Shown here one piece after another: positions 333 to 63,815 of a stretch of DNA of 64,000 nucleotides. Source of the DNA: a virus. Numbering within the stretch: position 1 is the first letter of the stretch; each line of letters begins with the position of its first letter. The notes under the pieces were generated by a model that had not been told where the DNA came from, searched no databases, and worked only from the letters and a program-made list of their open reading frames with translations. A program made the position numbers and the translations under genes. The stretch is from positions 36,594 to 100,593 of IMG/VR virus record IMGVR_UViG_3300020810_001160; one strand, given 5' to 3'.

Positions 333-2798
333 ATGAGTTATCGAAATAAGTTCGACAAAAAAATAAAATCAACAAAGATCAATGATGCTGTAAAGGTAAT
401 TGACGGGGGAAAGCAAAAAAATTCCGCATTATGGGGATCAGGTAATGGAACTGCTGGTTCTATAGGTGCAGAAACAGAATATTATGTAGATGATAATAAA
501 AAAACAACAGACACAGATAAAAAGAAAAAGCATACAATTACAAATTTATTCACAAGAAATTATGTAAGAAATCCTCTGCATGATTTTCAATCATACAATG
601 TAATTTTTACAGTGGCGGCACTAACTTTGGAAGAAGTTAATTTTCCAGATGTACTTTATAAAAGAGCTCCGTTATTTCCAGTGGCTCAATCAGCAGGTAA
701 AACCGGACCAGAAGTTACATTTTATAAAGACGCAGGATTAAATCTTGAATATTTTGTAGATGATGTTGAAATAAATGCAGTGGTAGGACCATCCAAAAAG
801 AACAAGCACACTCAATTTACAACAATGACATTTAACATCAAGGAACCTTTCAGTATAGGATTATTTTTCCAAACACTTAATATACAAGCCGTAAAAGCAT
901 CTGGCGATGCAGATGTGAATTATCTTAAAGCACCATATGGTCTAATTGTGGACTTTGTAGGTGTAGATGCTGAAGGAAAAAGTTTCAATAATGAAGAATT
1001 AAGAAAAGTTATACCTTTTTATTTTAAGTCAGCACAACTTCGAGCAGATACATCAGGAGCGATATATGAATGTTCTGCAGTACCAGTAACCGAGTATGGT
1101 CTTTTAACAGTTAACAACGCAATTAAACACGATATTACACTGTCTGGTAAAACTGTTTATGAAATGTTACAACAAGGTGATCAAAGTTTAATGGGACAAT
1201 TAAACTTTAAAGGAGAGACCGATAAAAAAGCCAAGAAAAAAACAAAAGTAACCACAGTGCCTACTGATGATTATATTGTGTATTTTCCAAACAATCTTTC
1301 TAGAACAATCACTGAACAACAACGTAAAGTGATTACAGAAGATAGAGCAGTGATCGTTGCCGACAACGCAGAGTACAGCTCGAAATTTGAAACAGAGAAA
1401 AGAGACACCGCAGTAGAAACACTTTTAGGTAACGACGTTATAGTTACTAATGAATTCAACGGCACAGGTGGTAAAGGAATAAGAGTTTTTCAAACAGTAG
1501 AAGAAGATGCTGATTCAGGAACAACGTTTTTAGGAAACGAAATTGGAGAAGCCAAAATGGCTATCGCTCCTGGTAATATGGCTATTATAGGAAAAACGTT
1601 TCCAGAATTTGAAGAAAAATATGACAAAAGGAAAAAAACTTTCACTAGAGACAAAATTACTCTTGATTTGAAAAAAATGACTTTAAGTTTTGCCAAAGGG
1701 TCTTATATCACAGACATAATAGAAACAGTGATCTTGTTGTCAGAATACAGTTTAAATTTAACTAAAAACCCAGATGAAATTAAAAATAAGCCCAAAGGTG
1801 GTCATCCTTGGTTTAGAATTGTAACAAAGTGCTTTGAATTAAAAGATTCATACATACAGTCCTTAATAAAACAAAATCCCAAAGTGGCTGTTTACAGTGT
1901 TGTACCATATATTGTACCAGATGAACTGTTTATTGATCCAGGCACTTATTCAGAAGGAACCACACAGATTAGAAATAATATCATCAAAGGTTACAATTAT
2001 CTATACACAGGGTTGAATGAAGACATACTAGATTTTAGACTGGATTATAATTTTGCTTTTTATAATTCTGTTGTGCCTAAAATGGATAAAAGTTCAAATA
2101 CTTCTGCGGCAGGTAAAGGAAAAACTGCTGAAAACAATGCCACAGTAGAGGTAGAAAAGAATTATGTAATAGAGCCCAGACCAAATGAATTAAAAGGAGG
2201 GGGAGGCAGTCTAACAAACAGACCAGAAGATGATATAATTGCCGGAGAAGAAGGATCAGAAAATGAATCAATTGAATTAAAAATTGCTAGATCCATGAAC
2301 AAAAGAATTATTAATTCAAATGTGGATTTATTAAATTTAGACATGACAATTATAGGTGATCCATATTTTTTACCCAGCAGTGGTATGATGAACACTGATG
2401 AACCTGTGAGAACATATGTGGATAGGAGAGGATTTCGCAATGCGGACGGTTCACTTACAGCATCAGGATCTGTGTATGGAAACGGTAGAGGTGAACTTAA
2501 TTATGTGGACAGAATGTGCTACATAGAAGTCAATTTTCAAACGCCAATTGATGTGCAAACAGGAGGCAATCATATGATATTTCCTACCACGGGCGGATAT
2601 GTTAACGGTATGAACGAATCTGTGCGTTTGGGAGAATTCAGTGGTTTGTATAGAGTACAAAAAATTGTGAATTCATTCAGACAAGGAAAATTTGAACAAA
2701 CACTCACAGTGATACGAAGTGGCAATATGTCAGTGGATGCTAAAGAAGGATCCAATGAAAATAAAAAAACTATCACTGAAACTGAAGGATCAAACTAA
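333..2798 (+). CDS. Baseplate hub protein (gp27/P2 gpD/VgrG-N-like)
   Basis: C-terminal MTIIGDPY...FSGLYRVQKIVNSFRQGKFEQTLTVIR pattern of hub proteins; directly upstream of the spike gene. Confidence 0.65.
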   Translation: MSYRNKFDKKIKSTKINDAVKVIDGGKQKNSALWGSGNGTAGSIGAETEYYVDDNKKTTDTDKKKKHTITNLFTRNYVRNPLHDFQSYNVIFTVAALTLEEVNFPDVLYKRAPLFPVAQSAGKTGPEVTFYKDAGLNLEYFVDDVEINAVVGPSKKNKHTQFTTMTFNIKEPFSIGLFFQTLNIQAVKASGDADVNYLKAPYGLIVDFVGVDAEGKSFNNEELRKVIPFYFKSAQLRADTSGAIYECSAVPVTEYGLLTVNNAIKHDITLSGKTVYEMLQQGDQSLMGQLNFKGETDKKAKKKTKVTTVPTDDYIVYFPNNLSRTITEQQRKVITEDRAVIVADNAEYSSKFETEKRDTAVETLLGNDVIVTNEFNGTGGKGIRVFQTVEEDADSGTTFLGNEIGEAKMAIAPGNMAIIGKTFPEFEEKYDKRKKTFTRDKITLDLKKMTLSFAKGSYITDIIETVILLSEYSLNLTKNPDEIKNKPKGGHPWFRIVTKCFELKDSYIQSLIKQNPKVAVYSVVPYIVPDELFIDPGTYSEGTTQIRNNIIKGYNYLYTGLNEDILDFRLDYNFAFYNSVVPKMDKSSNTSAAGKGKTAENNATVEVEKNYVIEPRPNELKGGGGSLTNRPEDDIIAGEEGSENESIELKIARSMNKRIINSNVDLLNLDMTIIGDPYFLPSSGMMNTDEPVRTYVDRRGFRNADGSLTASGSVYGNGRGELNYVDRMCYIEVNFQTPIDVQTGGNHMIFPTTGGYVNGMNESVRLGEFSGLYRVQKIVNSFRQGKFEQTLTVIRSGNMSVDAKEGSNENKKTITETEGSN

Positions 2799-4282
2799 TG
2801 GCAACACCGTCAAAAAGAAAATCATTTGCAGTAGATCCAAAGAAAGATAAAGGACCTTTTGAAGCCATTGTGAGGAATGTGTTGGATCCCAAATACAGCG
2901 GAGCAATTGAAGTTGAATTACTCAAAACACTGTCATCTGGCAATACCACAACCACAGGACAATTTGTCACTGCCAAATATTTAAATCCATTCTATGGCAC
3001 AACCTATGTGGGCGGCTTAACAAAAAACAAAGATCATAGAGACAGCCAACAGAGTTACGGTATGTGGTTTGTGCCACCCGATGTGGGCAACAGAGTACTG
3101 ATACAATTTATTGAAGGCAATATCAACAGAGCCTATTGGGTAGGATGTATTCCACAGGAACTGATGAATGTGATGATTCCAGGTTCTACACCTGCCATGA
3201 CCAACACTGACACAACAGATTCTGCACATCAAGAAGATCCTGCTGATGCAGATATCAGAGGCAAAAAAATGCCTGTGGGAGATCACAACAAATTAAAATT
3301 TTCCGACAAGCCAGTGGACAAACCATTACAGATCAAAAAGCCTATCAACAGATTATTCAAAGCAGTGTTAGAAACACAAGGCTTAATAGCAGATGAAACC
3401 AGAGGTTTAACCACATCAAGTGCTAGACGTGAAGTGCCTTCCAGTGTGTTTGGAATTAATACACCAGGACCAATAGACAAAGTATTCACACAAAATAAAG
3501 AAGTCGCCACAGCAAGATTGGGCGGAACATCATTTGTGATGGATGACGGTGATGATAAATTTATTAGAAAAACATCTGCAAAAACAGGACCTTTTGATTA
3601 TGTGAATGTTGAAACAACAGAAACAATCACCGAAGGCGAAAAGAATATTCCACACAATGAATTATTTAGAATACGTACTCGTACAGGACATCAAATACTG
3701 TTGCACAATTCAGAAGATCTTGTGTACATTGCCAACGCCAATGGTACAGCATGGATTGAAATGACTGCCAACGGCAAGATAGATTTCTTTGCCCAAGACA
3801 GTGTGAGCATTCACTCTCAAACAGATTTTAATTTCAAAGCAGACAGAGATGTGAATGTGGAGGCAGGACGCAGTATAAATCTTAAAGCAAGAAGCAGTAT
3901 CACAGAAGAATCTCTAGGCAGTCACACAGTGACAGTGGGAACCAATCAAACAATCACAGTTGCTAATTTACAAACTGTGTCGGTGGGAACAACCAATCAT
4001 TATGCCACAGGAAATATCAATCAGGATACTGGTGGAGTGATAAATCTAAACAATGGCTTTGCTGTTGAAACTCCTCCTACACCTTTGAGTACTCATGAAA
4101 ATCCAGGTGAGAGTTACGGTAATATCATGAAGAGGGTGCCTCAGCACGAACCATGGAGTCATCATGAAAATTATGATCCACAAGCAGTTTCTACGGCAAA
4201 AACAGATAGAACCACAATTGAACAAGTGTCTGTGAAAGAACCAAACAATATTCCTGACACATTTAAAAATGCGAGAACATAG
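2798..4282 (+). CDS. Baseplate central spike, gp5/VgrG-like (OB-fold + beta-helix), no lysozyme domain seen
   Basis: YGMWFVPPDVGNRVLIQFIEGNINRAYWVG OB-fold signature; RTRTGHQILL and Val/Thr/Gly beta-helix repeats (SHTVTVGTNQTITVANLQTVSVG). Confidence 0.85.
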   Translation: MATPSKRKSFAVDPKKDKGPFEAIVRNVLDPKYSGAIEVELLKTLSSGNTTTTGQFVTAKYLNPFYGTTYVGGLTKNKDHRDSQQSYGMWFVPPDVGNRVLIQFIEGNINRAYWVGCIPQELMNVMIPGSTPAMTNTDTTDSAHQEDPADADIRGKKMPVGDHNKLKFSDKPVDKPLQIKKPINRLFKAVLETQGLIADETRGLTTSSARREVPSSVFGINTPGPIDKVFTQNKEVATARLGGTSFVMDDGDDKFIRKTSAKTGPFDYVNVETTETITEGEKNIPHNELFRIRTRTGHQILLHNSEDLVYIANANGTAWIEMTANGKIDFFAQDSVSIHSQTDFNFKADRDVNVEAGRSINLKARSSITEESLGSHTVTVGTNQTITVANLQTVSVGTTNHYATGNINQDTGGVINLNNGFAVETPPTPLSTHENPGESYGNIMKRVPQHEPWSHHENYDPQAVSTAKTDRTTIEQVSVKEPNNIPDTFKNART

Positions 4283-4293
4283 AGGAGATTGAT

Positions 4294-5040
4294 ATGTCAT
4301 TTAGTATTCCATCATCTGTCACAGATAGTTTATCCGGTATGCAGGCATCTGCAGGTGATCTTACCAAAGTGGGAGGCGAAGCCTGTGATGTGATGGGCAC
4401 ACTGGGAGCCAGCGTTGGTGGAGACGCCATAGCCAAAGCCAGAGAAGCAGAACTTCAAATACAAGCCAACATTCCAAAACTCACTGCCAACGCAGGACTG
4501 ATGCAGACAGCGATTGCTGATTTAGGACCATTGTTAGAACAAGCAGATTCTTTAATTCCAACAGACTTTGGCGGTAATGCACTATCACCTCAGAACATAG
4601 ACGATGATCAGAGACAGATAATATCTGCGAATGCTCAAGCCATAAATGATGCCATGGCACAGTTTGGCAGTGTGGGAGCAAACATTTCAAGTTCGATGGC
4701 ATCATCAGTAACTGATATGTCGGCTTCTGTGGAAGCACTTAAACCTCAACTCAACGTTGCTGTGCAGACAATCTCAGCAGGAGGATGTAAAGGTGTAGAA
4801 AATCAATTGTCAGGCATAGCAGAAGGAGTGGCTCCACAACTGGACGCAATTAAAACTCAATTGGAGACAAAAACAATTCCCAGTCTAGAACCACAAGTGA
4901 ATGCACTATTAGATCAAGCCAAGGATACAGCCGCTCAGGCAGGCGCGGCATTTGAAGCCAATCAAGGAGCAATCACAGAAGCCGCAGATGCAATGAAGGC
5001 ATCAATCACTTCAGCATTACAAGGAGTACAATTACCATAA
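4294..5040 (+). CDS. Ala/Gln-rich amphipathic helical protein, unknown function
   Basis: 248 aa ORF with AGGAG RBS; no Trp, Tyr or His; repeated xxPQL helix-break motifs. Confidence 0.7.
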   Translation: MSFSIPSSVTDSLSGMQASAGDLTKVGGEACDVMGTLGASVGGDAIAKAREAELQIQANIPKLTANAGLMQTAIADLGPLLEQADSLIPTDFGGNALSPQNIDDDQRQIISANAQAINDAMAQFGSVGANISSSMASSVTDMSASVEALKPQLNVAVQTISAGGCKGVENQLSGIAEGVAPQLDAIKTQLETKTIPSLEPQVNALLDQAKDTAAQAGAAFEANQGAITEAADAMKASITSALQGVQLP

Positions 5041-5041
5041 C

Positions 5042-5365
5042 ATGGCAAGGGGAATAGCAAGAATTGGTGACAGAACAGATGGTACTTGTTATCATCCCAG
5101 TCATCTTGTGCCGCTAGCCACAGGAGGCACCATCATCACAGGATCCAGCAAAGTGGTGTGTGATGGCAATAGATTGGCGGCAACACTGGGAGATGAAGTG
5201 GAAACAGATTGTGGTCACATTGCTTATATTATTACAGCAACAGCCAAAGTGTTGATAGGACACAAGGCTCAATTTGTGGCAAGGCTGGGAGATCAGATTG
5301 ACGATGGCGCTCCCTACAAAGCCAAAATTGTCACGGCAAGCAATAAGACATTTCCACAAGGTTAA
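5042..5365 (+). CDS. PAAR-like spike tip protein (gp5.4-like)
   Basis: Three ARIGD/ATLGD/ARLGD repeats with Cys/His (CYH..H, DCGH) metal ligands. Confidence 0.85.
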   Translation: MARGIARIGDRTDGTCYHPSHLVPLATGGTIITGSSKVVCDGNRLAATLGDEVETDCGHIAYIITATAKVLIGHKAQFVARLGDQIDDGAPYKAKIVTASNKTFPQG

Positions 5366-5368
5366 ATA
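5363..5368 (+). promoter_or_regulatory. TAAATA late-promoter-like motif
   Basis: TAAATA 5 nt before the gp25 ATG; same motif recurs before many block-leading genes. Confidence 0.5.
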
Positions 5369-5373
5369 TCAAT

Positions 5374-5814
5374 ATGGCACATAAAAAATTATACAAAGAG
5401 ATCACAGTAGGACCGAGTATTAGTCCCAAACAACCACCTAGCCAAAGAATTTATAGAGGGATCAGCACAGTTAATCCAGACAACACAAATTTTGCTCTTA
5501 ACGATATTGGTTTAATCAAACAAGACTTATTAAATCATTTTCATATCAGTCAAGGCGAAAAGTTGGAGAATCCAGAGTTTGGCACAATCATTTGGGATTT
5601 GATACATGATCCTATGACACCAGACCTACAAGAAGCAATTAAACAAGATGTGGTGAAAATTATAGAAAATGATCCAAGAATTAGAGCTGATTCTGTGATT
5701 ATTACTCCATTTGAAGCAGGCATACAGATTGAAGTTGAATTAACATATGTCAAATATAATGTGTCTGAAAAATTAAGACTAACATTTGACGAGAATAATG
5801 GATTACTGAATTAA
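5374..5814 (+). CDS. Baseplate wedge subunit gp25-like
   Basis: LIKQDLLNHFHISQGEKLENPEFGTIIWDLI...IENDPRI gp25/GPW motif. Confidence 0.9.
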   Translation: MAHKKLYKEITVGPSISPKQPPSQRIYRGISTVNPDNTNFALNDIGLIKQDLLNHFHISQGEKLENPEFGTIIWDLIHDPMTPDLQEAIKQDVVKIIENDPRIRADSVIITPFEAGIQIEVELTYVKYNVSEKLRLTFDENNGLLN

Positions 5815-5836
5815 ATGCTCACATTATACAAACAAA

Positions 5837-5842
5837 TAAATA
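5837..5842 (+). promoter_or_regulatory. TAAATA late-promoter-like motif
   Basis: Intergenic AATAAATAAC upstream of the AAGGA RBS of the gp6-like gene. Confidence 0.5.
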
Positions 5843-5863
5843 ACACTATTAAAAAGGAAACCA

Positions 5864-8800
5864 ATGTCATCCACAGATAGACAAAATAGATTATTGTTAG
5901 CAGAAGACTGGAAAAGAGTTTATCAGTCATATAAAAATGCGGAATTCAAAAGTTACGACTTTGATACTATCCGTAGAACAATGATTCAATACATAAGACA
6001 GAACTATCCAGAAGATTTCAACGATTACATTGAATCATCAGAGTATCTAGCACTGATAGATTTGGTAGCGTTCCTAGGACAAAACTTGGCTTTCAGAACA
6101 GATTTAAATGCTAGAGAAAATTTTTTAGAAACTGCTGATAGACGTGATTCAATTTTAAGATTAGCAAGACTTATCAGTTACAATCCTACTAGAAATCAAT
6201 GTGCAAATGGTTTGATGAAAATCGTAGGAATAAGCACAACGGAAGATATTGTAGATAGCAATAATTTAAATTTAAGCAATCAAACAATCAGTTGGAACGA
6301 TGCAAGTAACCCAAATTGGTACGAACAATTTGTAAAAGTTTTAAATGCTTCACTTGCCGAAAATGAAAAATTTGGTAGCCCAGTTAAGTCATCAAACATA
6401 GATGCTATACCAACCAGTCAATACAGAGTCAATGCTAACAACACAGATGTTCCTGTTTACTCTTTTACAAAATCTGTAAACGGACAAAGTTTACCTTTTG
6501 AAATTGTTTCAACATCGTTTGACAACGGTGCTATCATGGAAGAGGCTCCGTTAGTAGGTAGACGTTTCAGTTTACTTCATAGAGACGATGGTAAAGGCAA
6601 TGCTTCAAACAATACAGGATTTTTTGTTCATTTTAGACAAGGTGTATTAGATCAAGGTAATTTTTCAGTTGATGTTCCAAGCAATAATCAATCAGTATCT
6701 ATTGAGGCTAGCAATATTAACAATACAGATGTTTGGTTATATCAATTAGATGTGGACACAGGATTAGAAGATACACTTTGGACAAAAGTTGATTCTGTTA
6801 CAGGTAATAATGTAATCTATAATTCAACAGCAAAAAGTGTTAAAAATATTTACACAGTATTGAGTGACACAGACGATTCAATCAGTTTAAAATTTGCTGA
6901 CGGTATATTTGGAAATCTTCCACAAGGAAATTTTAGAACTTACTACAGAAGAAGTAAAAATCAAAATGTTAGAATTGTGCCTGCAGATATGCAGAATGTT
7001 CAAATTGATGTTCAATATGTTTCTGCTAACAATCAAATTGAAGTTTTAACTTTAACAATGGGTCTTCAGTACACAGTGGACAATGCTACAACTTCTGAAA
7101 CAAACAACAACATTAGATTAAACGCTCCAGCAACTTATTACACACAAAATAGAATGATAACAGGAGAAGATTATAATGTTGCTCCGTTGGGAACTAATCA
7201 AGAAATTATAAAAGTAAAAGCAGTTAATAGAACTTCTAGCGGAATTTCAAGATATTATGATTTGATAGATTCAACAGGCAAGTACAGCAACACAAATATT
7301 TTTGGTGCTGATGGATCAATTTACAAAGAAGAAACAGAAAACTTAGATACATTTAGTTTTTCTACACAAACAGATATAGAAGGTGTTATTATTAATCAAT
7401 TGGAACCTTTGTTATCAAAAAATCAAACAAGAAATTATTACATTGAAAAATTCCCTAAAATATTTTTAAATGATTTGAATCCTGTATGGCAACAGGTTAC
7501 TAAATCAACCAATGAATCAACAGGAAAATTAATCGATGCTGTAAACGTTTTAGATTATCAAGTGGGAACATTCACAGCCAGTCAATTGAAATATGTTGAA
7601 CCAGGTGCTATGATTAAGTTTGTGGCTCCCGCAGGACAACATTTTATGGCTGATAATTCATTGATGACAGGTGTAGCGGATCATCCAGGCGCTAAAGATT
7701 ATATTTGGACATCAGTTGTTAGTGTGTTGAATGATGGTGTTGCTAATTCAAGCACAGGAGAAGGTGCTATAAAATTTAACGATGTTATTCCAACAGGTGC
7801 TATTGCTATACAGATATTACCAAAATTTGCAAAACAGTTCACTAACGATATCAAAACAATCATAATAGATCAAGCATTTGCTTATAATAATTTTGGAATA
7901 AGGTATGATGTTGCTAGTAGATCATGGCAAGTGATTGATGAAAATAATTTAGATGTTTACGGTACATTTAGTACAGGTAAAACAGGCGACACATCAAACC
8001 AACAGTTGGACAGCAGTTGGTTAATCAAATGTATTACAAATGGTGCAACATACACCATCACATACAGAGGATTAAGATATGTGTTTGAAAGTAAAAGAGA
8101 AGTAAGATTTTTCTATGATAGTGCTGACAGAAACTTTAATGCTCAAACAGGAGTTACATTACAAGATAAAGTTTCTGTGTTATCGATCAACACAAAACCT
8201 GATGTTGTAGCATCATTTACAAATGATATCAACTTTGCTGTATCAACAGAATACAGAACTTTGAGTGGATATGTAGACAGTTCTAAATTAGAATTAACAC
8301 AGTTTGATTCTGATCAAGATGGTATTGTTGATAATCCAGATGCATTTAACCTTGTTGTAGATCCAGCAACTAATTCTAGCACAAAATATGTTTTCCAAAA
8401 ACTTGTGAGTGAATCAGATGGAACACAAAGATATCAATATGTTAATGCTACAGATGAAAAAATTTATATTAGACAAACTTCAGTAGGTGCTATTGGAGAT
8501 TACACAAACGGATCGATTGTTTACCTGATTGACAGTGACAGTTTCAAACAAATAAACTCCACAACTAATACAACATCAAACATTACAAATTATGTGGCTC
8601 ACGTGGGTAGAGATAATATCAAATTCCAATATGTTCACACTGTGGATGGTAACACAAGATTGGATCCAAGTTCATCTAACATAATAGATATGTATGTTTT
8701 AACAAGAACATATGATATCAATTTTAGATTATGGTTAGCAGGTGTAACAACTACTAAACCTTTATTGCCTAGTAATGATTCGTTATACACAAATTATAAC

Positions 8801-9274: not shown

Positions 9275-9298
9275 ATAGAATAGAGGAAATGAATATTA

Positions 9299-55784: not shown

Positions 55785-55816
55785 TTTGTGCTATGCTCCT
55801 AACATCTAATATAGTG

Positions 55817-55822
55817 TATTTA
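55817..55822 (-). promoter_or_regulatory. TAAATA late-promoter-like motif
   Basis: Intergenic, upstream of the AGGAG RBS of the fibre gene. Confidence 0.55.
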
Positions 55823-55847
55823 TTCCGCTTGATGAATTGCTGAGTTA

Positions 55848-56177
55848 CTATTTTCGCTTTTTAAGGAAGGATTTAGTACGTTTCTGTATATCTGCTTTGA
55901 CCTTGTTGGTATCTATCCTAAAATCCACGTTTTTGATGTCATTTCCGTAGTGTTCAAACAATTCTTTGATGTTGGTCTCCAGTTGTTTATTGGTTAATTT
56001 TTGACGGTTAGGTTTTACTTTGATTTCCCATTGTTTGCCATCCTTAAATTGCACTTTAAGTGCCAGCAAATATTGTACAGGGATAGAGTCAATGCGTAAG
56101 TCATTGAACACTTCAGGCCAATGAGCTACAACTTCCTTAGGCAGTTTCTTTTTAGTAAACTTGACCACAACAGACAC
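55848..56177 (-). CDS. Hypothetical basic protein
   Basis: 109 aa ORF in the operon. Confidence 0.6.
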   Translation of the reverse strand: MSVVVKFTKKKLPKEVVAHWPEVFNDLRIDSIPVQYLLALKVQFKDGKQWEIKVKPNRQKLTNKQLETNIKELFEHYGNDIKNVDFRIDTNKVKADIQKRTKSFLKKRK

Positions 56178-56185
56178 TTGATGCT

Positions 56186-56758: not shown

Positions 56759-57075
56759 TATTTTGTCTCCGCTGGTTTATCACCTGCTGGTGCTGATGAT
56801 TTGTTTGCTTCTTTTTGAGATTGTTCTACAATCTTTAAGAAAGTTTCTAGTTTGTTATAAGTTGCACCTACCATTGCCATTTCATTGGCTTTGAATGCGC
56901 CTCTTTGACTAGCAACGTCGATGATTGTTTTTAAAACGTTTAAGTCTTGAACAGTTAACTCTGCTCCAGCACCTGCTTGAGTTTTAGGTGCCTGACTTGC
57001 TCCGTCTTGTCCAACAACTTGATCCTGTGTAGGAGTCGTTGCTGTTTTGGTTTGATTTGTATCTGTCATTTTCAT
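56758..57075 (-). CDS. Hypothetical protein
   Basis: 105 aa with AAGGAG RBS; ELTVQDL..IIDVASQRGAFKANE core. Confidence 0.7.
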   Translation of the reverse strand: MKMTDTNQTKTATTPTQDQVVGQDGASQAPKTQAGAGAELTVQDLNVLKTIIDVASQRGAFKANEMAMVGATYNKLETFLKIVEQSQKEANKSSAPAGDKPAETK

Positions 57076-57105
57076 GAGCTCCTTTTATATTTGTATATAC
57101 AAAAG

Positions 57106-57111
57106 TATTTA
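57106..57111 (-). promoter_or_regulatory. TAAATA late-promoter-like motif
   Basis: Overlaps the stop of 57109-57396, upstream of the next gene. Confidence 0.45.
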
Positions 57112-57396
57112 ATGACGTTTGATAAATGGGCAACTAAGATTGAATAAAGAAAGTTCTTTTGAGTTTTCGAATCCTACCAAAATATAATTTTGTATTTTTC
57201 CATCTCTATCCACATCAAGATGTTTACCAATATAGAATCTTCCTTTTAGGTTTTCCAAAATCCATTTCTCCAACAATTCTTCATTGTCGTTCCAGTCGTA
57301 ATTTAATTTTAGAAATTCTAAACCTTTTGGTTTTTTGGAAAATTTTCTACAATCGAAGTAGTTTAATGGATTTACTTGATTAGTTTTGGCAAACAT
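57109..57396 (-). CDS. Hypothetical protein
   Basis: 95 aa ORF, TAATG-coupled to the vWA gene. Confidence 0.6.
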   Translation of the reverse strand: MFAKTNQVNPLNYFDCRKFSKKPKGLEFLKLNYDWNDNEELLEKWILENLKGRFYIGKHLDVDRDGKIQNYILVGFENSKELSLFNLSCPFIKRH

Positions 57397-58646
57397 TATT
57401 CGTAATGTACCGTAGTACCAAAAGGTGCTTCCATGTTCTTATCATGATGACCATTTATCACAAACAGTGTGTCACAATAGTTTTCGTCGCCCCAAGTGTC
57501 CCAAGGATAACCATCTGTGAACATAATAAACTTCTTAGGTACTATGTCATTTTCTTTCATATAATTCCAGTTAGCCATAAAATCTGTACCACCGCCACCT
57601 TCTATTTTGTACGAATCCATAGATTCTCCTGATGCACCAAAGTCTTGTTCATTGTGTACTTCTGTATCAAAACACCATATTTTAATGTTATAATCTTTGT
57701 ATTGTTCCATAATACCTTGCACTTCACCTAGGAAATCTTGCACTTGTTCATTGTGTATTGAACCTGAAGTATCAATAGCAATACAGACATCAATAGTTTC
57801 ATCATAGTTTGTGCCTGGTAATATCACACCTGAGTGCCAACCTTTTCTGCTGGGTCTTGCAAATGTGTAATCATTTTTAATAACACTCTGAATCTGTTGT
57901 TGTAATAATTCTCTCCAGTTCATTTTAGGTTCTGTAAACTGTTGAATAATTCTTTCAATCTCTTTAGGCAGATTACCTGCACCAGCCGCCTGTGCCGCCG
58001 CCATCATAGACTCTTTTATTTCATTTTTAATTTGTTCTAATTCTTCTTTAGAGTAAGCAGGACCTTTACCTTTTTGTTTGCTGTTAGGGTCTTGTTTTGT
58101 TCCACCTGTGCTTTCACCTTTTTCCCAATCAATATGTTCATCAAGCAATTTACCTAACTGTTCCATTGCCTTCTTACCTTTTTTATAGATGTCATCATAC
58201 ACTGCCTCACTTGCCCAACCATCATATTTCCAATCTTGGAATATCTGCACATCCTTAGGTTTCTCACCAATGTTGTCTCTTACCAATGTGTTGTTAACAA
58301 TGTAATCACAAGCGATGTTATGTAATTGAGGATCTCTATCTTCACGTCTTGTCATGTGATCAAACACACAATGAAGTATTTCGTGTGCAATAACAAATTC
58401 AATTTCTTTGCTAGACATTTTACTAAAAAATTCTGTATTAAAAAATAAATTTCTGCCATCAGTTGCGGCAGTTGGACACCAGTCATCACATTCTTTAATT
58501 TGAAGTCTTGTTGCCATGTTACCGAAAAAAGGATGTCTCAACAACAGTCCAACTCTTGCAACCACAATTTTATCGATAACTTCTGCTCTTAATTGCTTTA
58601 ATTCTTCTGGACTTAATTCTTTCTTTTCTAAAATCTCTGTGCTCAT
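57396..58646 (-). CDS. vWA-domain protein with N-terminal HExxH metallopeptidase-like domain (DUF2201-like)
   Basis: TAATDG, AHEILH, MIDAS DTSGS, GGGGTDF, FTDGY. Confidence 0.85.
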   Translation of the reverse strand: MSTEILEKKELSPEELKQLRAEVIDKIVVARVGLLLRHPFFGNMATRLQIKECDDWCPTAATDGRNLFFNTEFFSKMSSKEIEFVIAHEILHCVFDHMTRREDRDPQLHNIACDYIVNNTLVRDNIGEKPKDVQIFQDWKYDGWASEAVYDDIYKKGKKAMEQLGKLLDEHIDWEKGESTGGTKQDPNSKQKGKGPAYSKEELEQIKNEIKESMMAAAQAAGAGNLPKEIERIIQQFTEPKMNWRELLQQQIQSVIKNDYTFARPSRKGWHSGVILPGTNYDETIDVCIAIDTSGSIHNEQVQDFLGEVQGIMEQYKDYNIKIWCFDTEVHNEQDFGASGESMDSYKIEGGGGTDFMANWNYMKENDIVPKKFIMFTDGYPWDTWGDENYCDTLFVINGHHDKNMEAPFGTTVHYE

Positions 58647-58652
58647 ATTATT

Positions 58653-58681
58653 ATAATACTTTCTTTTGGTAAATTAGTCAA
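58653..58681 (-). promoter_or_regulatory. sigma70-like promoter TTGACT-N17-TATTAT
   Basis: -35 at 58676-58681 and -10 at 58653-58658 with 17 nt spacing. Confidence 0.7.
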
Positions 58682-58692
58682 CCGTTTTTTGG

Positions 58693-58721
58693 TATAGGGC
58701 ACCGGTAAAGAGTGCCCTATA
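58693..58721. other. Perfect 10-bp hairpin (TATAGGGCAC-N9-GTGCCCTATA) after the ATPase gene
   Basis: Inverted repeat seen directly; no U-tract in the direction of transcription, so a terminator role is uncertain. Confidence 0.6.
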
Positions 58722-58731
58722 TTCAACACTT

Positions 58732-59844
58732 TTATTTGATGCTTTGAGCGGCAGTAATATATTTGCCGTATTTTTCATGGAATTCATCAAAACATTTGAC
58801 TGCATCAGGATCAATCGGTAATTGATACTGAGTTAATGCCATCTTGATACCCATAACAACAAGTTCTGTATCGAAGTTGTCCATCATAAATCTAAGAAAC
58901 TTATTAACTTTGTCATTAAATTTCTTATCTTTTTTGTCATTTGCTTCTTTGAGTTCATAACATAACGAAACCGTAAGGGAGTACATTGCTGATATTTCTT
59001 TCGATTTCAGTTCTGTTATTTTGCCTTCAAGTATTTCTGAAGGATTAGGTAACTGTGAAGCCACCTTTCTATGAGCCATGAACTTGACTGCAAGTCCTTC
59101 GCCCACTGCACCACTGACCAAGTCGGTCACAGTGTTTTCATCTAAATCATCCGATAACAACTCACTTACGAATGACCAAGATCTTGGAGTAGCAAAAGAA
59201 CGACTTGGTGATCTAGGATCAAAGTCATACAAGTCCTTCTTGCTAAAAGTTAGATATCCAACAACGTCTTTACTGATGTTGTTAGCCACTGCCCATTCAA
59301 ACCAATCATCAAATTCTGGTTTCATTTCTAAATGGACGAATCTGTTTGCCAACGGAGCAGGCATTCTGTACACAACTCCTTTGTCAGCCTCTCTGTTACC
59401 AGCCGCAACAATTAATACATTGTCTGGTAATTCATATTGACCAACTTTTCTGTTTAGGATCAATTGATATGCCGCCGCCTGTACTGAAGGTGCCGCAGAA
59501 TTCATTTCATCCAAAAACAACACAATGTTCTTGTGTTTCTTTGCCATCTGTTCTGTAGGCAATTCTGATGGAGATGCCCAAACCATATTGTTTTCTTTTG
59601 AATTGTAGTATGGAATACCTTTAATATCTGTAGGCTCCCATAAACTTAATCTGATATCGATCACTTTGGCATCGATAGTTTTGGCAATTTGATGTATAAC
59701 ATCTGATTTACCAATACCAGGGCCGCCCCATAAAAATATTGGTCTCTTAATTTTTAATGCGTGTAATATGCTCGCCTTTGCTTTGTTAGGCGACAATTGT
59801 CTGGTTGTAATGCCAGTATCTTGTGTGCTTTTTTGTTTTACCAT
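58732..59844 (-). CDS. MoxR-like AAA+ ATPase
   Basis: GGPGIGKS Walker A, LFLDE Walker B, AAGNR, PLANRF, TPRSW. Confidence 0.9.
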   Translation of the reverse strand: MVKQKSTQDTGITTRQLSPNKAKASILHALKIKRPIFLWGGPGIGKSDVIHQIAKTIDAKVIDIRLSLWEPTDIKGIPYYNSKENNMVWASPSELPTEQMAKKHKNIVLFLDEMNSAAPSVQAAAYQLILNRKVGQYELPDNVLIVAAGNREADKGVVYRMPAPLANRFVHLEMKPEFDDWFEWAVANNISKDVVGYLTFSKKDLYDFDPRSPSRSFATPRSWSFVSELLSDDLDENTVTDLVSGAVGEGLAVKFMAHRKVASQLPNPSEILEGKITELKSKEISAMYSLTVSLCYELKEANDKKDKKFNDKVNKFLRFMMDNFDTELVVMGIKMALTQYQLPIDPDAVKCFDEFHEKYGKYITAAQSIK

Positions 59845-59878
59845 TTTGTACTCCTTAATAAATTGTTGTTATGTTTTA

Positions 59879-59907
59879 ATAATACATTCTGGCAATCAAA
59901 AAGTCAA
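59879..59907 (-). promoter_or_regulatory. sigma70-like promoter TTGACT-N17-TATTAT
   Basis: -35 at 59902-59907 and -10 at 59879-59884; a second TTGACT at 59918-59923. Confidence 0.7.
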
Positions 59908-59946
59908 TACCTAAAGAAGTCAAGGTTTATGCGGATTTTTAGGGTC

Positions 59947-59955
59947 TGTGGATAA
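59947..59955 (-). promoter_or_regulatory. Consensus DnaA-box sequence TTATCCACA
   Basis: Exact 9-mer in the intergenic region upstream of the promoter; a single copy could be chance. Confidence 0.3.
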
Positions 59956-59956
59956 C

Positions 59957-60346
59957 TTATTCGGGAGATTCTAGTCTAGAAAGTGCTTTATTCAAACCGT
60001 ATTTTCGTATATCACCAGAAAACAACATCAATTCCATTGCTTTCTTTTCATTGGTCACAATCACACCATCATCTGCTAGGTAGTATGGACAGTCTATATA
60101 TTTGTCTAAAAATATTATGGTTTGTGTGGTTAAATTGAAATCGTTCGGAAATGGTACATCGTATGTTTGAAGTTGCAGTTTATCTTTAATAAATGACAAT
60201 CCTTCATCTGTAAGACGCAGTCCACCTGAACCTTTGTTTCTACTGTTCTTCCACCATGTAGGCATATACTCCCTCATAGTATTTTCACCTATGCTGATAT
60301 TAGCCTGCTTTAAGAATATTTTGGTGTAGGTTTCTTTCCAATTCAT
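59957..60346 (-). CDS. Hypothetical protein
   Basis: 129 aa ORF, ATGA-coupled. Confidence 0.7.
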   Translation of the reverse strand: MNWKETYTKIFLKQANISIGENTMREYMPTWWKNSRNKGSGGLRLTDEGLSFIKDKLQLQTYDVPFPNDFNLTTQTIIFLDKYIDCPYYLADDGVIVTNEKKAMELMLFSGDIRKYGLNKALSRLESPE

Positions 60347-60633
60347 TTTTCACTGACAGTTTCACCCTGAGTCAATTTGACCACAGTGAATTCTTCAGTG
60401 TTGAACATGGTGTTCAATTTCTTGGCTAGATTGAATGCGTGTCCAGGATTTGAAAAACTTACTTTTTTGTATTTTGGACCCGGGTAATTGTTTAACTGAT
60501 TTGCTGATTTTAGGTTGAATGGTTTGTTCTGGTAAAACACTGCCCATATGCCTTCAGCCGCCAGAACTTGTTCGCTCTTATAAGTTTTGCGATCGGTGTT
60601 TTCTAGTAGTATAGTCGGTTTAGGTCTACTCAT
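60343..60633 (-). CDS. Hypothetical protein
   Basis: 96 aa ORF preceded by TAAATA (60644-60649, minus). Confidence 0.7.
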   Translation of the reverse strand: MSRPKPTILLENTDRKTYKSEQVLAAEGIWAVFYQNKPFNLKSANQLNNYPGPKYKKVSFSNPGHAFNLAKKLNTMFNTEEFTVVKLTQGETVSEK

Positions 60634-60666
60634 ATAATATGAGTATTTATCTAAAATGAATCGGTA

Positions 60667-60906
60667 TTATAGATTACCGCCGTCTACTTTGACTTCTATT
60701 GTTTGAGCCTCTGTGCTGTCTTTTTGTGCTATTAGACCCTCATAGTCGCCCGCTAAACGGGCCAGCACTGTGGCTAGTGCATATGTGACTTGTTTGGCTG
60801 TATTGATGTCTAACCGCACTTCTTTTTGATTGCTGAGGTCAGCACCTTTCACTTGTTGAATAAATTGCTGTAAACTGGCTGTATTAATAGGGTCTTTTAT
60901 TGGCAT
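60667..60906 (-). CDS. Hypothetical protein
   Basis: 79 aa ORF with GGAG RBS. Confidence 0.6.
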   Translation of the reverse strand: MPIKDPINTASLQQFIQQVKGADLSNQKEVRLDINTAKQVTYALATVLARLAGDYEGLIAQKDSTEAQTIEVKVDGGNL

Positions 60907-61381
60907 TGCTCAACTCCGTTTTCATTTCTAATGATGTTCTAAATGGACCTTTAAAAGGATAACTTTCCAATGTTAACAATTTGGGACAATAACTTCGTAC
61001 CCATCCTTTTTCAAACTTAATTATATAGTATCCAGCACAATATAAACTTTTGGATTTTTTACTCTTGTTAAACAATGGCAGTTTCTTTTTTACATCAAAT
61101 ACCATATTGTAAGGTTTAAACTTGCTCGGATAATCATACACAGAATTATCTTCATTTTCTTTTTCTTCTTTAGGCGCACTAACTGTGGATCCCCACATCC
61201 AATCTCCGTTGAAATTCTTTTGAAGTTGCTGTTGATTATCGAAGATTCTAGTACCGTCAGAACAACTGAACATATATCTTCTGTCTTCTTGTCTACAAAT
61301 TGTGCCTACTTTTTGACCATCAGATTCCAGTATCCAGAATCTATTTGCTAGTATAGGCTTCGCAAAAAATTTAGTTGTCAT
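60884..61381 (-). CDS. Hypothetical protein
   Basis: 165 aa ORF, ATGA-coupled to the exonuclease gene. Confidence 0.7.
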   Translation of the reverse strand: MTTKFFAKPILANRFWILESDGQKVGTICRQEDRRYMFSCSDGTRIFDNQQQLQKNFNGDWMWGSTVSAPKEEKENEDNSVYDYPSKFKPYNMVFDVKKKLPLFNKSKKSKSLYCAGYYIIKFEKGWVRSYCPKLLTLESYPFKGPFRTSLEMKTELSNANKRPY

Positions 61382-62376
61382 GCCATTACCTCTTCTTTCT
61401 GTTTGTATTTCGCATTTAATGGTTCAGCATAAGTTTGCGGGTATTCAGCAATTTTTTGCATATCCCATTTAGCACAAAATTTAATTAATTTTAATCCAAC
61501 CTGTTCTATTGTTTTAGGCTTAACGGAATTGATTGTTTCTTTAATAATACTTTTAATTTCTTCTGGTTGTGCTGTTAAATCACACAGTGTTACATTTCTT
61601 TGATAGTCATCCACAACTCTATGTTCTTCACCATTATGGTCCAACCAACGTTGTAACATCATATTGTTCCAGTTATATCCTTTGGAATTTCTATCTTCAA
61701 ATGCTTCAGTTAATCCAACTTTCTTTTTGGTACCTTTGGTCCTAACACCAGGATATGCAGAAAATACATTGTCAGCAGTATCACCTCTCATACATTTTTC
61801 AAACAACAACCATTCTGGATTTGGTGCTGGCTTATCTTCGCCAGTTTTCTTATCTTTGACTCTGTTACCTTTTGCGTCAAAATAGCCTTCATGTGTTATG
61901 GTAGTTTCTGTAATACCATTGTATTGACACACATTAGGAGCAATCAATTGAGCAAAATCGCCATCTGTGCTAATAATGATGTGATTATCATTAGGATGTG
62001 CTTGTACCCAACCAGCAATTAAATCGTCTGCTTCTAATTGAGAGTGTTGCAGTGTTGTACAATTTGTTTTTGTGTCTATAAATTCTTTAAAGTTGTCAAA
62101 AGTTTCCCAAAATATTGTATCTTCTTCCACTTCTTTTTCTGTTCTAGCCTCTCTAGCCTCACTTCTGTTTCTTTTGTATGGAGTATAGAAGTCTTTACGC
62201 CAACTTCTTCCTTCCAAACAGAATACCACGTGATCTCCTTTGAAGTCTTGCCATACTTTTCTAATACTGTTGAATGTGATATGTAGAGCCATACCTACTT
62301 TAGAATCCAAATCGCTCTGTATGGCGTGTTTGGCTCTAAAAAATGTATTGGCTGTGTCTACTAATATATAATTCAT
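61378..62376 (-). CDS. rnh: T4 RNase H-like 5'-3' exonuclease (FEN/PIN fold)
   Basis: ILVD, SWRK..YKRNR, LEADDLIA, ISTDGDFAQL, GDTADNV. Confidence 0.9.
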   Translation of the reverse strand: MNYILVDTANTFFRAKHAIQSDLDSKVGMALHITFNSIRKVWQDFKGDHVVFCLEGRSWRKDFYTPYKRNRSEAREARTEKEVEEDTIFWETFDNFKEFIDTKTNCTTLQHSQLEADDLIAGWVQAHPNDNHIIISTDGDFAQLIAPNVCQYNGITETTITHEGYFDAKGNRVKDKKTGEDKPAPNPEWLLFEKCMRGDTADNVFSAYPGVRTKGTKKKVGLTEAFEDRNSKGYNWNNMMLQRWLDHNGEEHRVVDDYQRNVTLCDLTAQPEEIKSIIKETINSVKPKTIEQVGLKLIKFCAKWDMQKIAEYPQTYAEPLNAKYKQKEEVMA

Positions 62377-62379
62377 ATT

Positions 62380-62478
62380 TTATAATTTTATAAACAAGTA
62401 ATACCACAAAACAATTAGAGCTCCACCTGATCCCAGTATCATTATTATTGCGGCGATTTCTTGTAAAATTGATATCAT
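62380..62478 (-). CDS. Small single-pass membrane protein, 32 aa (not in the ORF track)
   Basis: MISILQEIAAIIMILGSGGALIVLWYYLFIKL*; TAATG-coupled to the upstream gene and fills the gap. Confidence 0.65.
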   Translation of the reverse strand: MISILQEIAAIIMILGSGGALIVLWYYLFIKL

Positions 62479-62858
62479 TAACTGATCTCCGATTTATCCT
62501 CACTTAAATTTTTTGTATTGATATATCCAGCACCTCTTGTGGGATCCATGCCTTCTTCTTGAAGAATGTTTCTTGCTATGGTTTTAAACCAAGCATCCAC
62601 AATCTGTTCATTGCTTTCACCTTTATAACCAGCATCCAACAGTTTTTCAATGAATTCATTATTCCAATCCAGTTCAAAGAAACCATTTTTGATATTGTCT
62701 TCATTTATTTTTGTGTCCAACACAGCCACCCAAGGTTCTCCTTTTGCTGTGGCTTGTTCTTTTTCTTTCAACAGTGCTTCTAATCTTGGATTAGATTCTT
62801 CAGTTGTTGTTTCTTTCTTTTTAACAAATATGTCTTTTACTTTTTTTATTATATCCAT
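62478..62858 (-). CDS. Hypothetical protein
   Basis: 126 aa; KEQATAKGEPWVAV..GFFELDWN. Confidence 0.7.
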   Translation of the reverse strand: MDIIKKVKDIFVKKKETTTEESNPRLEALLKEKEQATAKGEPWVAVLDTKINEDNIKNGFFELDWNNEFIEKLLDAGYKGESNEQIVDAWFKTIARNILQEEGMDPTRGAGYINTKNLSEDKSEIS

Positions 62859-62915
62859 TTTCTTATCTCCGATATTTCTTTTAATCTTTGTTCTTCTCTA
62901 TCCTTCATCATCTCC

Positions 62916-63815
62916 TTAGGTACCCCAGGCATTTCCGAATATGTCGACATGGAGTCTTGGAGTGTATCTCCATCCTCTTTCCATTGCGAGCTCGGCGACC
63001 TTTCTTGTGTTGAGTGTGTATGTTTCGGATCTTCCACCCAGTGGCATAATATATACGGGAACGTTGATTCCAGCGTCACGAAACTCGGCAACTGCCTTCG
63101 TAACTTCATCCACATCGGTTGCATCAGCAACCACAAATTTAAAATACATTTGACTGCGAGGAATCCCATAATAAGACCTAGCAATCTCAGGCTTGATAGC
63201 AGTGTGCCAAGGTTCACCTGATACGGAAAGTTTTGGAGAGCAACTCCAAGTGACTTCGAATCTGTTTTGTTTTCTAAGATAATCTTCAAAATCCTTGTGT
63301 AAAATCTGCGTTGTATTTGTTTCGAATGTAACATTTTTCAAGTCTCCCATTTTTGGATGTTCAAATAGATCAATATAAAATCTTTGCCAACCTAGCAAAG
63401 GTTCTCCGCCTGTTAAGATAAAGTGTACGTCTTGTCCATTAGACATTGTCCATTTTCCTTCTGGCGTTAAAGATAGTATGTGTTCCACAACTTCATCGAT
63501 AGTTCTATCTTTCATATACTTTTTAAACTCTGGATATATGCTGGCGTAAGTATCACAACCTGTGTGTATGATTGGCAAGTCTTCAAATTGTTTAACTTTG
63601 TCCAATACTCCATCATCTAAAAGTTTTTTTACTTCTGGATTGTATTTGATGCCTTGTTTTAATTTTTCTTCTCTGTCTGGATGTCTATCCAATCCAAAGT
63701 TCATGCATCTAAAATTACAACCAAAAGTTCGTAAGAATACACTGGGTACTCCTACAAATCTTCCTTCTCCTTGTACAGAGTAAAATGCTTCTGAATATCT
63801 AAGTTTTTTAGTCAT
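62916..63815 (-). CDS. queE: 7-carboxy-7-deazaguanine synthase (radical SAM) with a long insertion in the cluster motif
   Basis: EAFYSVQGEG, FLRTFGCNFRC...GCDT, TGGEP, ETN, SPKL, RLHV. Confidence 0.9.
   Translation of the reverse strand: MTKKLRYSEAFYSVQGEGRFVGVPSVFLRTFGCNFRCMNFGLDRHPDREEKLKQGIKYNPEVKKLLDDGVLDKVKQFEDLPIIHTGCDTYASIYPEFKKYMKDRTIDEVVEHILSLTPEGKWTMSNGQDVHFILTGGEPLLGWQRFYIDLFEHPKMGDLKNVTFETNTTQILHKDFEDYLRKQNRFEVTWSCSPKLSVSGEPWHTAIKPEIARSYYGIPRSQMYFKFVVADATDVDEVTKAVAEFRDAGINVPVYIMPLGGRSETYTLNTRKVAELAMERGWRYTPRLHVDIFGNAWGT

Follow-up and report, generated by a model that had tools for sequence, protein, structure and literature searches.

The window analysed here is a stretch of 64,000 nt from an uncultured, giant, T4-like phage, whose source record of 100,593 bp (100.6 kb) is about 27% complete, and the question that it raises is why the tetranucleotide AGCT has nearly disappeared from it while the few remaining copies all stand next to a G. 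An exact search found 10 AGCT sites in the window, against 163 ± 12 expected from dinucleotide shuffles and 148 from an order-2 Markov model, and 17 in the whole record, where about 244 were expected. The ten have the very coordinates that had been listed by eye in a preliminary description of the sequence, with no extra site, and its further statement that the 14.6 kb gene at 9299-23950, encoding 4883 aa, is free of AGCT was borne out by exact search (0 sites). All the survivors are G-flanked, i.e. they lie in GAGCT and/or AGCTC, with a G directly 5' of the site on at least one strand (10/10 in the window and 17/17 in the record), as that description had claimed; given a background flank frequency of 0.31, the chance of such a pattern in the record is 2e-9. 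By megablast, the window had no match among the GenBank phages.

The depletion also stands under a synonymous codon shuffle, the third null applied to AGCT. The coding sequences of this record (denoted G000) contain 14 AGCT sites, against about 299 expected, and the exact counts by flank context, which the preliminary description had proposed to compare with expectation, are graded: 0 observed against about 212-213 ± 12 expected (lowest shuffle 179) with no flanking G, 11 against about 80.8-81.5 with one, and 3 against about 4.1-4.8 with two. Read from the sequence, the surviving sites are distributed over all three reading frames. Their coordinates, together with those of the genes discussed below, are collected in Table 1.

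Table 1. Surviving AGCT sites and selected genes in the window (positions count from the first nucleotide of the window).
Feature	Position	Strand	Remarks
AGCT-depleted region	1..64000		Entire window; extends through the remainder of the 100.6-kb record
Surviving AGCT, GAGCTC	665..668		Flank G on both strands; within gene 333-2798
Surviving AGCT, CAGCTC	1377..1380		Flank G on minus strand only
Surviving AGCT, GAGCTG	5685..5688		Flank G on plus strand only
Surviving AGCT, CAGCTC	27658..27661		One flank
Surviving AGCT, GAGCTC	37425..37428		Overlaps Shine-Dalgarno-like AGGAG, just upstream of TTG start codon at 37433
Surviving AGCT, GAGCTA	56124..56127		One flank
Surviving AGCT, GAGCTG	56366..56369		One flank
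Surviving AGCT, GAGCTC	57077..57080		Reads AAGGAGCTCATG on the minus strand, where gene 56758-57075(-) has its ribosome-binding site and start
5'-3' exonuclease gene	61378..62376	-	PF02739, E 8e-21; neighbourhood marker only, outside the proposed mechanism
Surviving AGCT, GAGCTC	62419..62422		Lies in the gap on the upstream side of the exonuclease gene
Divergent QueE-like radical SAM gene (7-carboxy-7-deazaguanine synthase family), 299 aa	62916..63815	-	phrog_2076 full-length match, E 6e-52
Surviving AGCT, GAGCTC	62989..62992		Inside the QueE-like gene
folE (GTP cyclohydrolase I) 3' end, last 60 codons	63820..63999	-	Cut by the record end

Several related lineages show the flank rule too, and at sites that are not orthologous. 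Close relatives hold different AGCT sites, each of them G-flanked, which indicates gains and losses with the rule kept, and because the sites turn over in this way the rule does not reflect the inheritance of a few shared sites. With sites classed by the number of G-purine steps at their edges (0, 1 or 2) and counts given as observed/expected under the codon-aware null, AGCT in the relative G007 amounts to 0/307, 3/97 and 1/6.3; the relative G010 has 0/91 without a flank G and 9/30 with one, and G006 has 19/203 and 56/69, respectively. Retention of one-flank AGCT sites varies from 0.03 to 0.9 among the lineages. As an exception, G001, which encodes folE and QueE, has lost AGCT wholly, GAGCT included (0/61 with one flank, 0/3.6 with two). 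AGCT counts are normal in L010 (33/34; 81% portal identity), in most of the relatives whose portal is about 70% identical, and in G004 and G005, so the avoidance is lineage-specific rather than clade-wide. L256 as a case lacking flank tolerance was dropped after its whole 148-kb record had been analysed, and the complete genomes of PA5oct and Vibrio phage 2.275.O proved uninformative as positive footprints, there being little avoidance in them.

The rule extends beyond AGCT. GCGC and GGCC obey the same 5'-G rule, and CATG is kept only where a purine comes after its last G; in general, sites survive if a G-purine step touches the site edge. In the same classes as above, GCGC pooled over G000, G001, G006 and G007 gives 0/130, 80/152 and 10/18. 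CATG pooled over G000, G001 and G007 gives 0/158 without an edge step and 457/475 with one, GGCC in G007 gives 17/108 and 36/35, and pooled CGCG without an edge step is absent (0/37). A flank G that forms GC or GT has no effect (CGCG, CCGG, CATG, TGCA), and all the wholly absent 6-mer palindromes are without a G-purine step. The avoided motifs assort independently across lineages, as is expected if they reflect separate host enzymes. GCWGC is an exception to the rule, being missing even where it is G-flanked (0/24 in G000 and 0/18 in G001), and AGATCT and TTCGAA contain GA yet are depleted about 3-fold, which counts against shielding by GA. Avoidance of CviJI-type RGCY sites was ruled out, AGCC and GGCT showing no notable depletion, as was a set of 6-bp enzymes (HindIII, PvuII etc.), asymmetric hexamers such as AAGCTG and CAGCTT being missing too. 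The strong lineage-specific loss of AGCT, GCGC, GGCC, CATG and GCWGC by synonymous changes resembles plain restriction-site avoidance by phages, but here it depends on the flank. The plain form is seen in GAP32, a clade member that lacks the deazaguanine pathway and our single negative control, where GCGC is absent whatever the flank (0/255; among the flanked sites, 0 of about 105).

The end of the window falls within a cluster of deazaguanine-precursor genes, consisting of a divergent QueE and the truncated 3' portion of folE. The CAjan protein used as positive control is also matched in the phrog_2076 search that identified the QueE-like protein; against the NCBIfam QueE models only the N-terminal 34 aa match, at E ~1e-8 and below the cut-offs. 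The protein carries the motif SVQGEG...GCNFRC with the third cluster Cys displaced, shares 30% identity with PA5oct gp162 (E 7e-30), and has the gp162 gene neighbourhood of QueE, small ORFs and exonuclease; the order from QueE to exonuclease is common to PA5oct, G001, G004, G005 and L251. The FolE fragment matches NF006824/TIGR00063 (E 4e-11 to 8e-11) over model positions 161-215 of 219 and phrog_2197 (E 7e-15), contains the motif EHHCM..RGV, and is 46% identical to FolE of Vibrio phage 2.275.O. QueD, which has no match in the 100.6-kb fragment, was found in G005, G007, G008, PA5oct, Phosso and Vibrio phage 2.275.O. QueC was found only in Vibrio phage 2.275.O, the other records giving weak partial matches only, and since it is missing from most members of the clade the product may be CDG, or something derived from it, and not preQ0.

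A candidate for the enzyme that would insert the modified base is the family of PA5oct gp168, which is most likely a transglycosylase of tRNA-guanine transglycosylase (TGT) fold with about 520 aa. For a family member, the AF2 model (pLDDT 88.7) retrieves tRNA-guanine transglycosylases as every one of its 50 best Foldseek hits, with probability 1.00; residues D101, S102, G104, D146 and D294 are invariant in the family, and G103 and Q106 nearly so. The family was found in every complete genome that has the pathway (PA5oct, Phosso and Vibrio phage 2.275.O) as well as in G004-G007 and G010, and the two genomes that lack the pathway, GAP32 and fHe-Yen9-04, have no member of it. In L251 the gene lies about 8.6 kb upstream of QueE, and this QueE shares 91% identity with that of the window. 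The present 100.6-kb fragment ends within folE and does not contain the gene, and its presence in this lineage, like that of QueD, is extrapolated from the relatives. Only the fold search recognised the TGT relationship: a sequence profile of the family had no match in the PDB, no clade record matches the canonical DpdA models phrog_887 and phrog_7068, both of which match the CAjan control, and CAjan DpdA as query gave nothing significant by tblastn, phmmer or hhalign against the gp168-like profile. A search with PF01702 misses CAjan DpdA itself, so that its negatives are uninformative. A protein of 272-286 aa adjoining folE was rejected as the transglycosylase, having no family matches and a poor AF2 model (pLDDT 57), and a radical-SAM island was discarded as the source of the trait, being partly common to G001 and to G004, whose AGCT counts are normal. 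As to the proposed check whether the AGCT pattern tracks with dpdA/que genes across relatives, the pattern does not simply follow the que genes: G005 and PA5oct have them with no avoidance, or almost none in PA5oct.

Known phage systems of 7-deazaguanine modification offer several likenesses. CAjan encodes DpdA and the preQ0 pathway, is modified at GA and GGC, and blocks HaeIII (PMC7544227), and iggy carries 7-deazaguanine modification at GA only (PMC10484667). The present clade likewise has FolE, QueD, QueE and a TGT-fold transglycosylase, the target would be sequence-specific and set by the base 3' of G, and the modification would protect against restriction enzymes. It differs in its transglycosylase, which goes unmatched by PF01702, phrog_887, phrog_7068 and the CAjan DpdA comparison. 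Furthermore, the target inferred here is G before any purine, and protection would act from outside the recognition site, combined with site avoidance. The specificity is not that of CAjan (GA and GGC): GGCC is protected in CAjan, but unflanked GGCC is here depleted 5-10 fold (13/62.5 in G000). As each GGCC has an internal GG step, a modified G within this site would have to fail to protect while an extra G at position -1 would have to do so. The nearest experimental parallel is PA5oct, a Pseudomonas jumbo phage (Wroclawvirus) and therapeutic candidate, which belongs to the same clade (capsid 67% identical), has a homologous QueE in the same neighbourhood and encodes the TGT-like gp168. In the available part of a 2025 preprint (PMC12191111), its DNA is reported to resist EcoRI, BmrI, XbaI and BsaI, from which the authors deduce that G is modified at GA and/or GG, and they note QueE gp162 and PTPS gp230; that part of the text names no inserting enzyme. 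The GA/GG context reported there is the one inferred here. PA5oct differs in having almost no site avoidance, and the footprint is thus unreadable from its genome.

The observations are probably best explained by two layers acting together, avoidance of host restriction enzymes and a shield in which G before a purine carries a modification of 7-deazaguanine type. Hosts of the lineage would carry enzymes that cut short palindromes, such as AGCT (AluI type), with other combinations of host enzymes targeting GCGC, GGCC, CATG, CGCG and GCWGC, and selection would purge these palindromes through synonymous changes. The phage would replace or modify a G followed by a purine (GA, GG), most likely with a 7-deazaguanine derivative made from GTP via FolE, QueD and QueE, which the divergent TGT-fold transglycosylase would insert after replication. 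Where a modified G stands just before AGCT, GCGC or GGCC, or closes CATG or CGCG, that strand would become a poor substrate, and such sites would then cost nothing and persist. Shielding would be strand-wise, with AGCT eliminated when no strand is shielded, partly tolerated with one and fully tolerated with two; sites of the one-strand class are retained at about 0.14-0.18 of expectation here and about 0.8-0.9 in G006. Removal of the other AGCT sites would presumably be pointless unless the survivors, about 60 if their number is scaled up to a full genome of some 370 kb, resist cutting. Our literature search turned up no report of cleavage being blocked by a deazaguanine that lies outside the recognition site. 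A more specific version, about which we are slightly more doubtful than confident, is that the gp168-family transglycosylase, an enzyme so far overlooked, and FolE/QueD/QueE, mostly without QueC, place a CDG-derived 7-deazaguanine at every G before a purine throughout a large aquatic and soil clade of jumbo T4-related phages, which would stop restriction enzymes even when it sits one base pair beyond the site, so that the specificity can be read from the sites that are kept, without any chemistry. The sequence-specific deazaguanine shield of the preliminary description is partly supported: it gains from folE and QueE in the window, the TGT-fold gene in the closest relatives, the GA/GG report on PA5oct and the flank rule at GCGC, GGCC, CATG and CGCG, and loses from the lack of GAGCT in G001 and the loss of G-flanked GCWGC. 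If the shielding model is true, one could deduce which sequences a DNA hypermodification targets in uncultured phages from composition alone, provided that restriction avoidance gives the contrast, and a widespread jumbo-phage clade would have a candidate inserting enzyme that current DpdA sequence models miss. A modified base could moreover guard a restriction site without lying in the recognition sequence, which would alter the reading of digestion resistance and of effective restriction targets, and phages would pair partial modification with site avoidance instead of using one alone.

The pattern might instead arise with no modification at all, from host enzymes with degenerate 6-bp specificities or flank preferences (HAGCTD, HGCGCD, HGGCCD, RCATGY), a G at -1 weakening each half-site. 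We regard this as unlikely, though deserving serious weight: a homodimer that reads half-sites would give just such a graded response to none, one or both flanks, and RCATGY is a known restriction specificity (NspI type), so that the CATG result does not separate the two models. The flank-tolerant (G000, G006, G010) and flank-blind (G001) avoidance of the same motif, all in carriers of QueE, also favours it, and requires enzyme differences under any model; so do G005 and PA5oct, with the pathway and without the avoidance. On the other hand, three or four unrelated enzymes would have to share the exclusion of one base at one flank position, and we know of no HAGCTD, HGCGCD or HGGCCD specificity that has been described. 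The single rule of a G before a purine covers five motifs as well as the absent flank effect at GC/GT junctions, in a phage that carries the pathway genes, and it agrees with the GA/GG motif that the available part of the PA5oct preprint infers experimentally (PMC12191111).

Another modification that needs the G at -1, such as N6-adenine methylation at a GA motif or cytosine methylation by a phage or host methyltransferase, is improbable. An m6A enzyme of GAGC type would protect GAGCT strand-wise, and methylation within AGCT is reported to block AluI-type enzymes; however, one methyltransferase cannot cover GAGCT, GGCGC, GGGCC and CATGR together, no C5 or N4/N6 methyltransferase was found in G000-G004, which are fragments, and the genes actually found are deazapurine genes. 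It is also improbable that the phage's own host-DNA-degrading nuclease has shaped the sequence, the phage avoiding or shielding its targets. T4-like phages do degrade host DNA, and a GIY-YIG nuclease is conserved at genome positions 31255-31686, but it is also conserved in G004 with its normal AGCT counts; no restriction-like nuclease gene was found, and five or more independently assorting motifs suit variable host restriction systems better. An artefact of codon usage, amino-acid composition or the shared ancestry of a few sites, or plain chance, is refuted by the codon shuffle (0/213 ± 12), the flank probability, the spread over reading frames, the turnover of sites between relatives and the normal counts in L010 and in most of the relatives with a portal about 70% identical. 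The survivors at 37425 and 57077 overlap Shine-Dalgarno-like GGAG, and a few sites may therefore be held by other constraints.

The tetranucleotide AGCT is almost eliminated from this DNA: the window holds 10 copies against 163 ± 12 expected from dinucleotide shuffles and 148 from a Markov model, and the whole record (G000) holds 17 against ~244. An exact search of the window returned the same ten positions that the preliminary description had listed, and its statement that every survivor lies in a GAGCT or AGCTC context holds throughout the record (17/17; P = 2e-9 at a background flank frequency of 0.31). The hexamer counts that it had proposed to set against expectation are graded by the number of flanking Gs, i.e. 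Gs directly 5' of the site on either strand, being 0/169 (observed/expected) with none, 12/68 with one and 5/6.9 with both (GAGCTC) in the record. Under a stricter null, in which synonymous codons were shuffled within each gene, the counts were 0/213 ± 12, 11/81 and 3/4.8, respectively. The surviving sites represent all three reading frames, and at 37425 and 57077 they share bases with a Shine-Dalgarno-like GGAG.

The same dependence is seen in other motifs. All 26 GCGC sites of the record are GGCGC or GCGCC (0/28.5 without a flanking G, 21/29.9 with one, 5/7.8 with two), and GGCC shows the effect in a softer form than GCGC. On CGCG, CCGG, CATG and TGCA, where the junction would be GC or GT, a flanking G makes no difference. 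CATG is missing only if its terminal G precedes a pyrimidine on both strands (0/44.7) and is at expectation in the remaining classes (112/113.5 and 46/54.7); CGCG has a similar pattern, dependent on the base after its terminal G. A single rule describes AGCT, GCGC, GGCC, CATG and CGCG, namely that a site survives when a G-purine step touches its edge, and no 6-mer palindrome that is wholly absent contains such a step. An exception to the rule is GCWGC, which is missing from the window and the whole record (0 vs ~112 expected under a Markov model, or ~80 codon-aware) and is not rescued by a flanking G (0 vs ~24 expected G-flanked copies); it is also absent from the related records G001, G006 and G007, and stands at 63/220 in a fourth, G004.

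The record, a viral contig of 100,593 bp from IMG/VR of which the window is the final 64 kb, has ~36% GC and a CheckV completeness of 27%. Judged by its gene content, it belongs with the T4-related jumbo phages typified by Rak2, GAP32 and PA5oct: its gp23 capsid protein shares 67-69% identity with its counterparts in Sinorhizobium phage Phosso, Vibrio phage 2.275.O, Yersinia phage fHe-Yen9-04 and Pseudomonas phage PA5oct, and it also encodes a gp20 portal, gp21 protease, gp46/47, baseplate, spike and PAAR proteins, a 4883-aa fibre-like protein and a radical SAM gene cluster. The comparison used IMG/VR loci with the portal, QueE or gp168 gene at their centre, plus several whole records. Loss of AGCT is lineage-specific, with normal counts in L010 (a locus with 81% portal identity), in the related records G004 and G005, and in most relatives of ~70% identity. 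The surviving AGCT sites differ among G000, its relatives G002 and G003 and shorter contigs, and each gained site is G-flanked. In G006 (124 kb, the record of locus L327), unflanked AGCT stands at 24 vs 209 expected, and flanked AGCT at expectation (75/80). In at least nine more lineages unflanked GCGC is zero and flanked GCGC is retained, irrespective of AGCT, GCWGC or RCATGY status; therefore, the avoided motifs assort independently and the flank rule recurs. This independent assortment is as expected from separate host restriction systems.

Codon-aware counts (observed/expected) in related viral records, classed by number of edge G-purine steps
Record	Motif	0 steps	1 step	2 steps
G007	AGCT	0/307	3/97	1/6.3
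G007	GCGC	0/38	21/44	2/5.4
G007	GGCC	17/108	36/35	0/2.6
G010	AGCT	0/91	9/30	0/1.8
G006	AGCT	19/203	56/69	2/3.8
G001	AGCT	0/205	0/61	0/3.6
G001	GCGC	0/37	32/39	3/3.1

Two genes of the 7-deazaguanine precursor pathway lie at the end of the window, the QueE-like one being its last complete gene. The QueE-like protein has diverged: only its N-terminus is matched by NCBIfam models, with scores under their cut-offs, and an insertion seems to displace its third cluster cysteine. FolE, QueD and QueE are present in PA5oct, Phosso and G005, with QueC and QueF in addition in Vibrio phage 2.275.O; none of these five was found in the genomes of GAP32 and fHe-Yen9-04. Searches for the DNA transglycosylase DpdA with PF01702, the Pfam TGT model, gave no match and were discarded because the model also misses the annotated DpdA of the control phage CAjan, which phrog_887 and phrog_7068 do detect; a negative PF01702 search should not count as absence of a phage DpdA. 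PA5oct carries a second QueD-like gene, a candidate that could encode a DpdL-type CDG decarboxylase (described in 10.1101/2023.04.13.536721).

A presence/absence screen pointed to gp168 of PA5oct, a ~520-aa hypothetical protein encoded near QueE, whose family matched nothing in Pfam or PHROG. In the family alignment D101, S102, G104, D146 and D294 are invariant and G103 and Q106 near-invariant, a set that we take to resemble the TGT catalytic signature. A confident AF2 model (pLDDT 88.7) has tRNA-guanine transglycosylases as all of its top 50 PDB hits (probability 1.00), at moderate TM-scores of 0.35-0.52. The family occurs in every pathway-positive complete genome, plus G004-G007 and G010, and is missing from both pathway-negative genomes. 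In locus L251, whose QueE is 91% identical to that of the window, the gene lies ~8.6 kb upstream of QueE at the head of a same-strand array, in which HhH-GPD-like, PRTase-like and HIT-domain genes are also found; the corresponding region of G000, where the gene would be expected, falls just past the contig end. The PRTase-like and HIT-domain proteins could point to a nucleotide-level step in the chemistry.

Features in the window, the record and related phages
Feature	Location	Strand	Remarks
QueE-like radical SAM protein	window 62916-63815	-	full-length PHROG model match, E 6e-52; CAjan control positive
FolE C-terminus	final 180 bases of window		EHHCM..RGV motif; interrupted by contig end
Radical SAM island	window 35379-54652		dense; 7 or more radical SAM genes, several of them SPASM-containing; two Asp/Arg-hydroxylase-like genes, one epimerase-like gene
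12-gene block	window 46106-54652
Radical SAM protein, HMPTM-type zinc ribbon	window 52834-54069		within 12-gene block
Protein with N-terminal Mtd (major tropism determinant) domain	window 54657-55784	-	E 6e-12
MoxR-type AAA ATPase, DUF2201 metallopeptidase/VWA protein	window 57396-59844	-
Delta-aminolevulinic acid dehydratase (hemB)	L001:18992-19795 = genome 18992-19795	-	E 8e-43; amid virion genes
Same-strand module, past the G000 contig end	L251:1584-9312		ahead of FolE and QueE; conserved in homologous stretches of L254, L256, L285, L302; GFO/IDH-like and ADH-like oxidoreductases, ClpP, small HhH-GPD glycosylase-like protein (E 4e-5, below cut-off), PRTase-like and HIT-domain proteins, unknowns of 358, 272 and 200 aa
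FolE, QueD, three genes, second QueD-like gene (gp231, gp230, gp226)	PA5oct (NC_071039) 168449-171971

That AGCT was lost through restriction avoidance is well supported. A set of 6-bp enzymes is ruled out as the cause, because AAGCTG, CAGCTT and other asymmetric hexamers are absent from the record as well. The flank rule most likely reflects modification of G at G-purine steps, in which a modified G would shield the sites next to it or overlapping it, each strand separately; a literature search found no published case of a modified base outside the recognition site blocking cleavage. The survivors are argued to be refractory because a genome with ~60 sites still open to cutting would gain nothing from the removal of the rest. 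In CAjan, preQ0 has been confirmed at GA and GGC (Kot et al. 2020, PMC7544227), GA being the target that the preliminary description had named; CAjan DNA blocks HaeIII and EcoRV, and sites with only GC, GT or GGT are cut (PMC7544227). Phage iggy has a strict GA motif (Olsen et al. 2023, PMC10484667), and for PA5oct a GA and/or GG context of the modified G has been inferred from experiment (PMC12191111). The PA5oct genome has only 2 GTGCAC sites, a scarcity that alone may explain its ApaLI result.

The main rival, restriction enzymes with an intrinsic H...D flank specificity, we consider rather unlikely. Modification is favoured on parsimony, because one rule covers the five motifs together with those without a flank effect; because pathway genes lie in the window and a TGT-fold gene in close relatives; because the rule matches the context inferred for PA5oct; and because GAP32, without the pathway, lacks GCGC in any context. 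Against modification stand G001, in which AGCT is gone even when flanked, and GCWGC; moreover, unflanked GGCC is depleted despite its own GG, some GA-containing hexamers are partly depleted, and neither a transglycosylase nor a QueD gene is present on the contig. The deazaguanine shielding of residual sites proposed earlier is partly supported: the pathway genes speak for it, and the exceptions G001 and GCWGC limit it.

The whole genome of Cronobacter phage GAP32 (NC_019401) has GCGC at 0/255 and many 6-mer palindromes at zero, among them CTGCAG (0/74), CCATGG (0/40), GGATCC (0/34) and CAGCTG (0/36); restriction avoidance of the classical kind is extreme here, in a member of the clade that lacks deazaguanine genes. 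The radical SAM island of the window is partly common to G001 and G004 and does not track the AGCT trait; its 12-gene block has nearly no counterpart in either (one weak 26% match). From its domain, the Mtd protein may be the target of a diversity-generating retroelement or bind a receptor. The hemB gene is found in G002 and G003 and not in G001 or G004. The MoxR-type ATPase and DUF2201 proteins show 66-77% identity in G001 and G004, and the FolE and QueE genes of Vibrio phage 2.275.O have a gene for a vWA protein between them.
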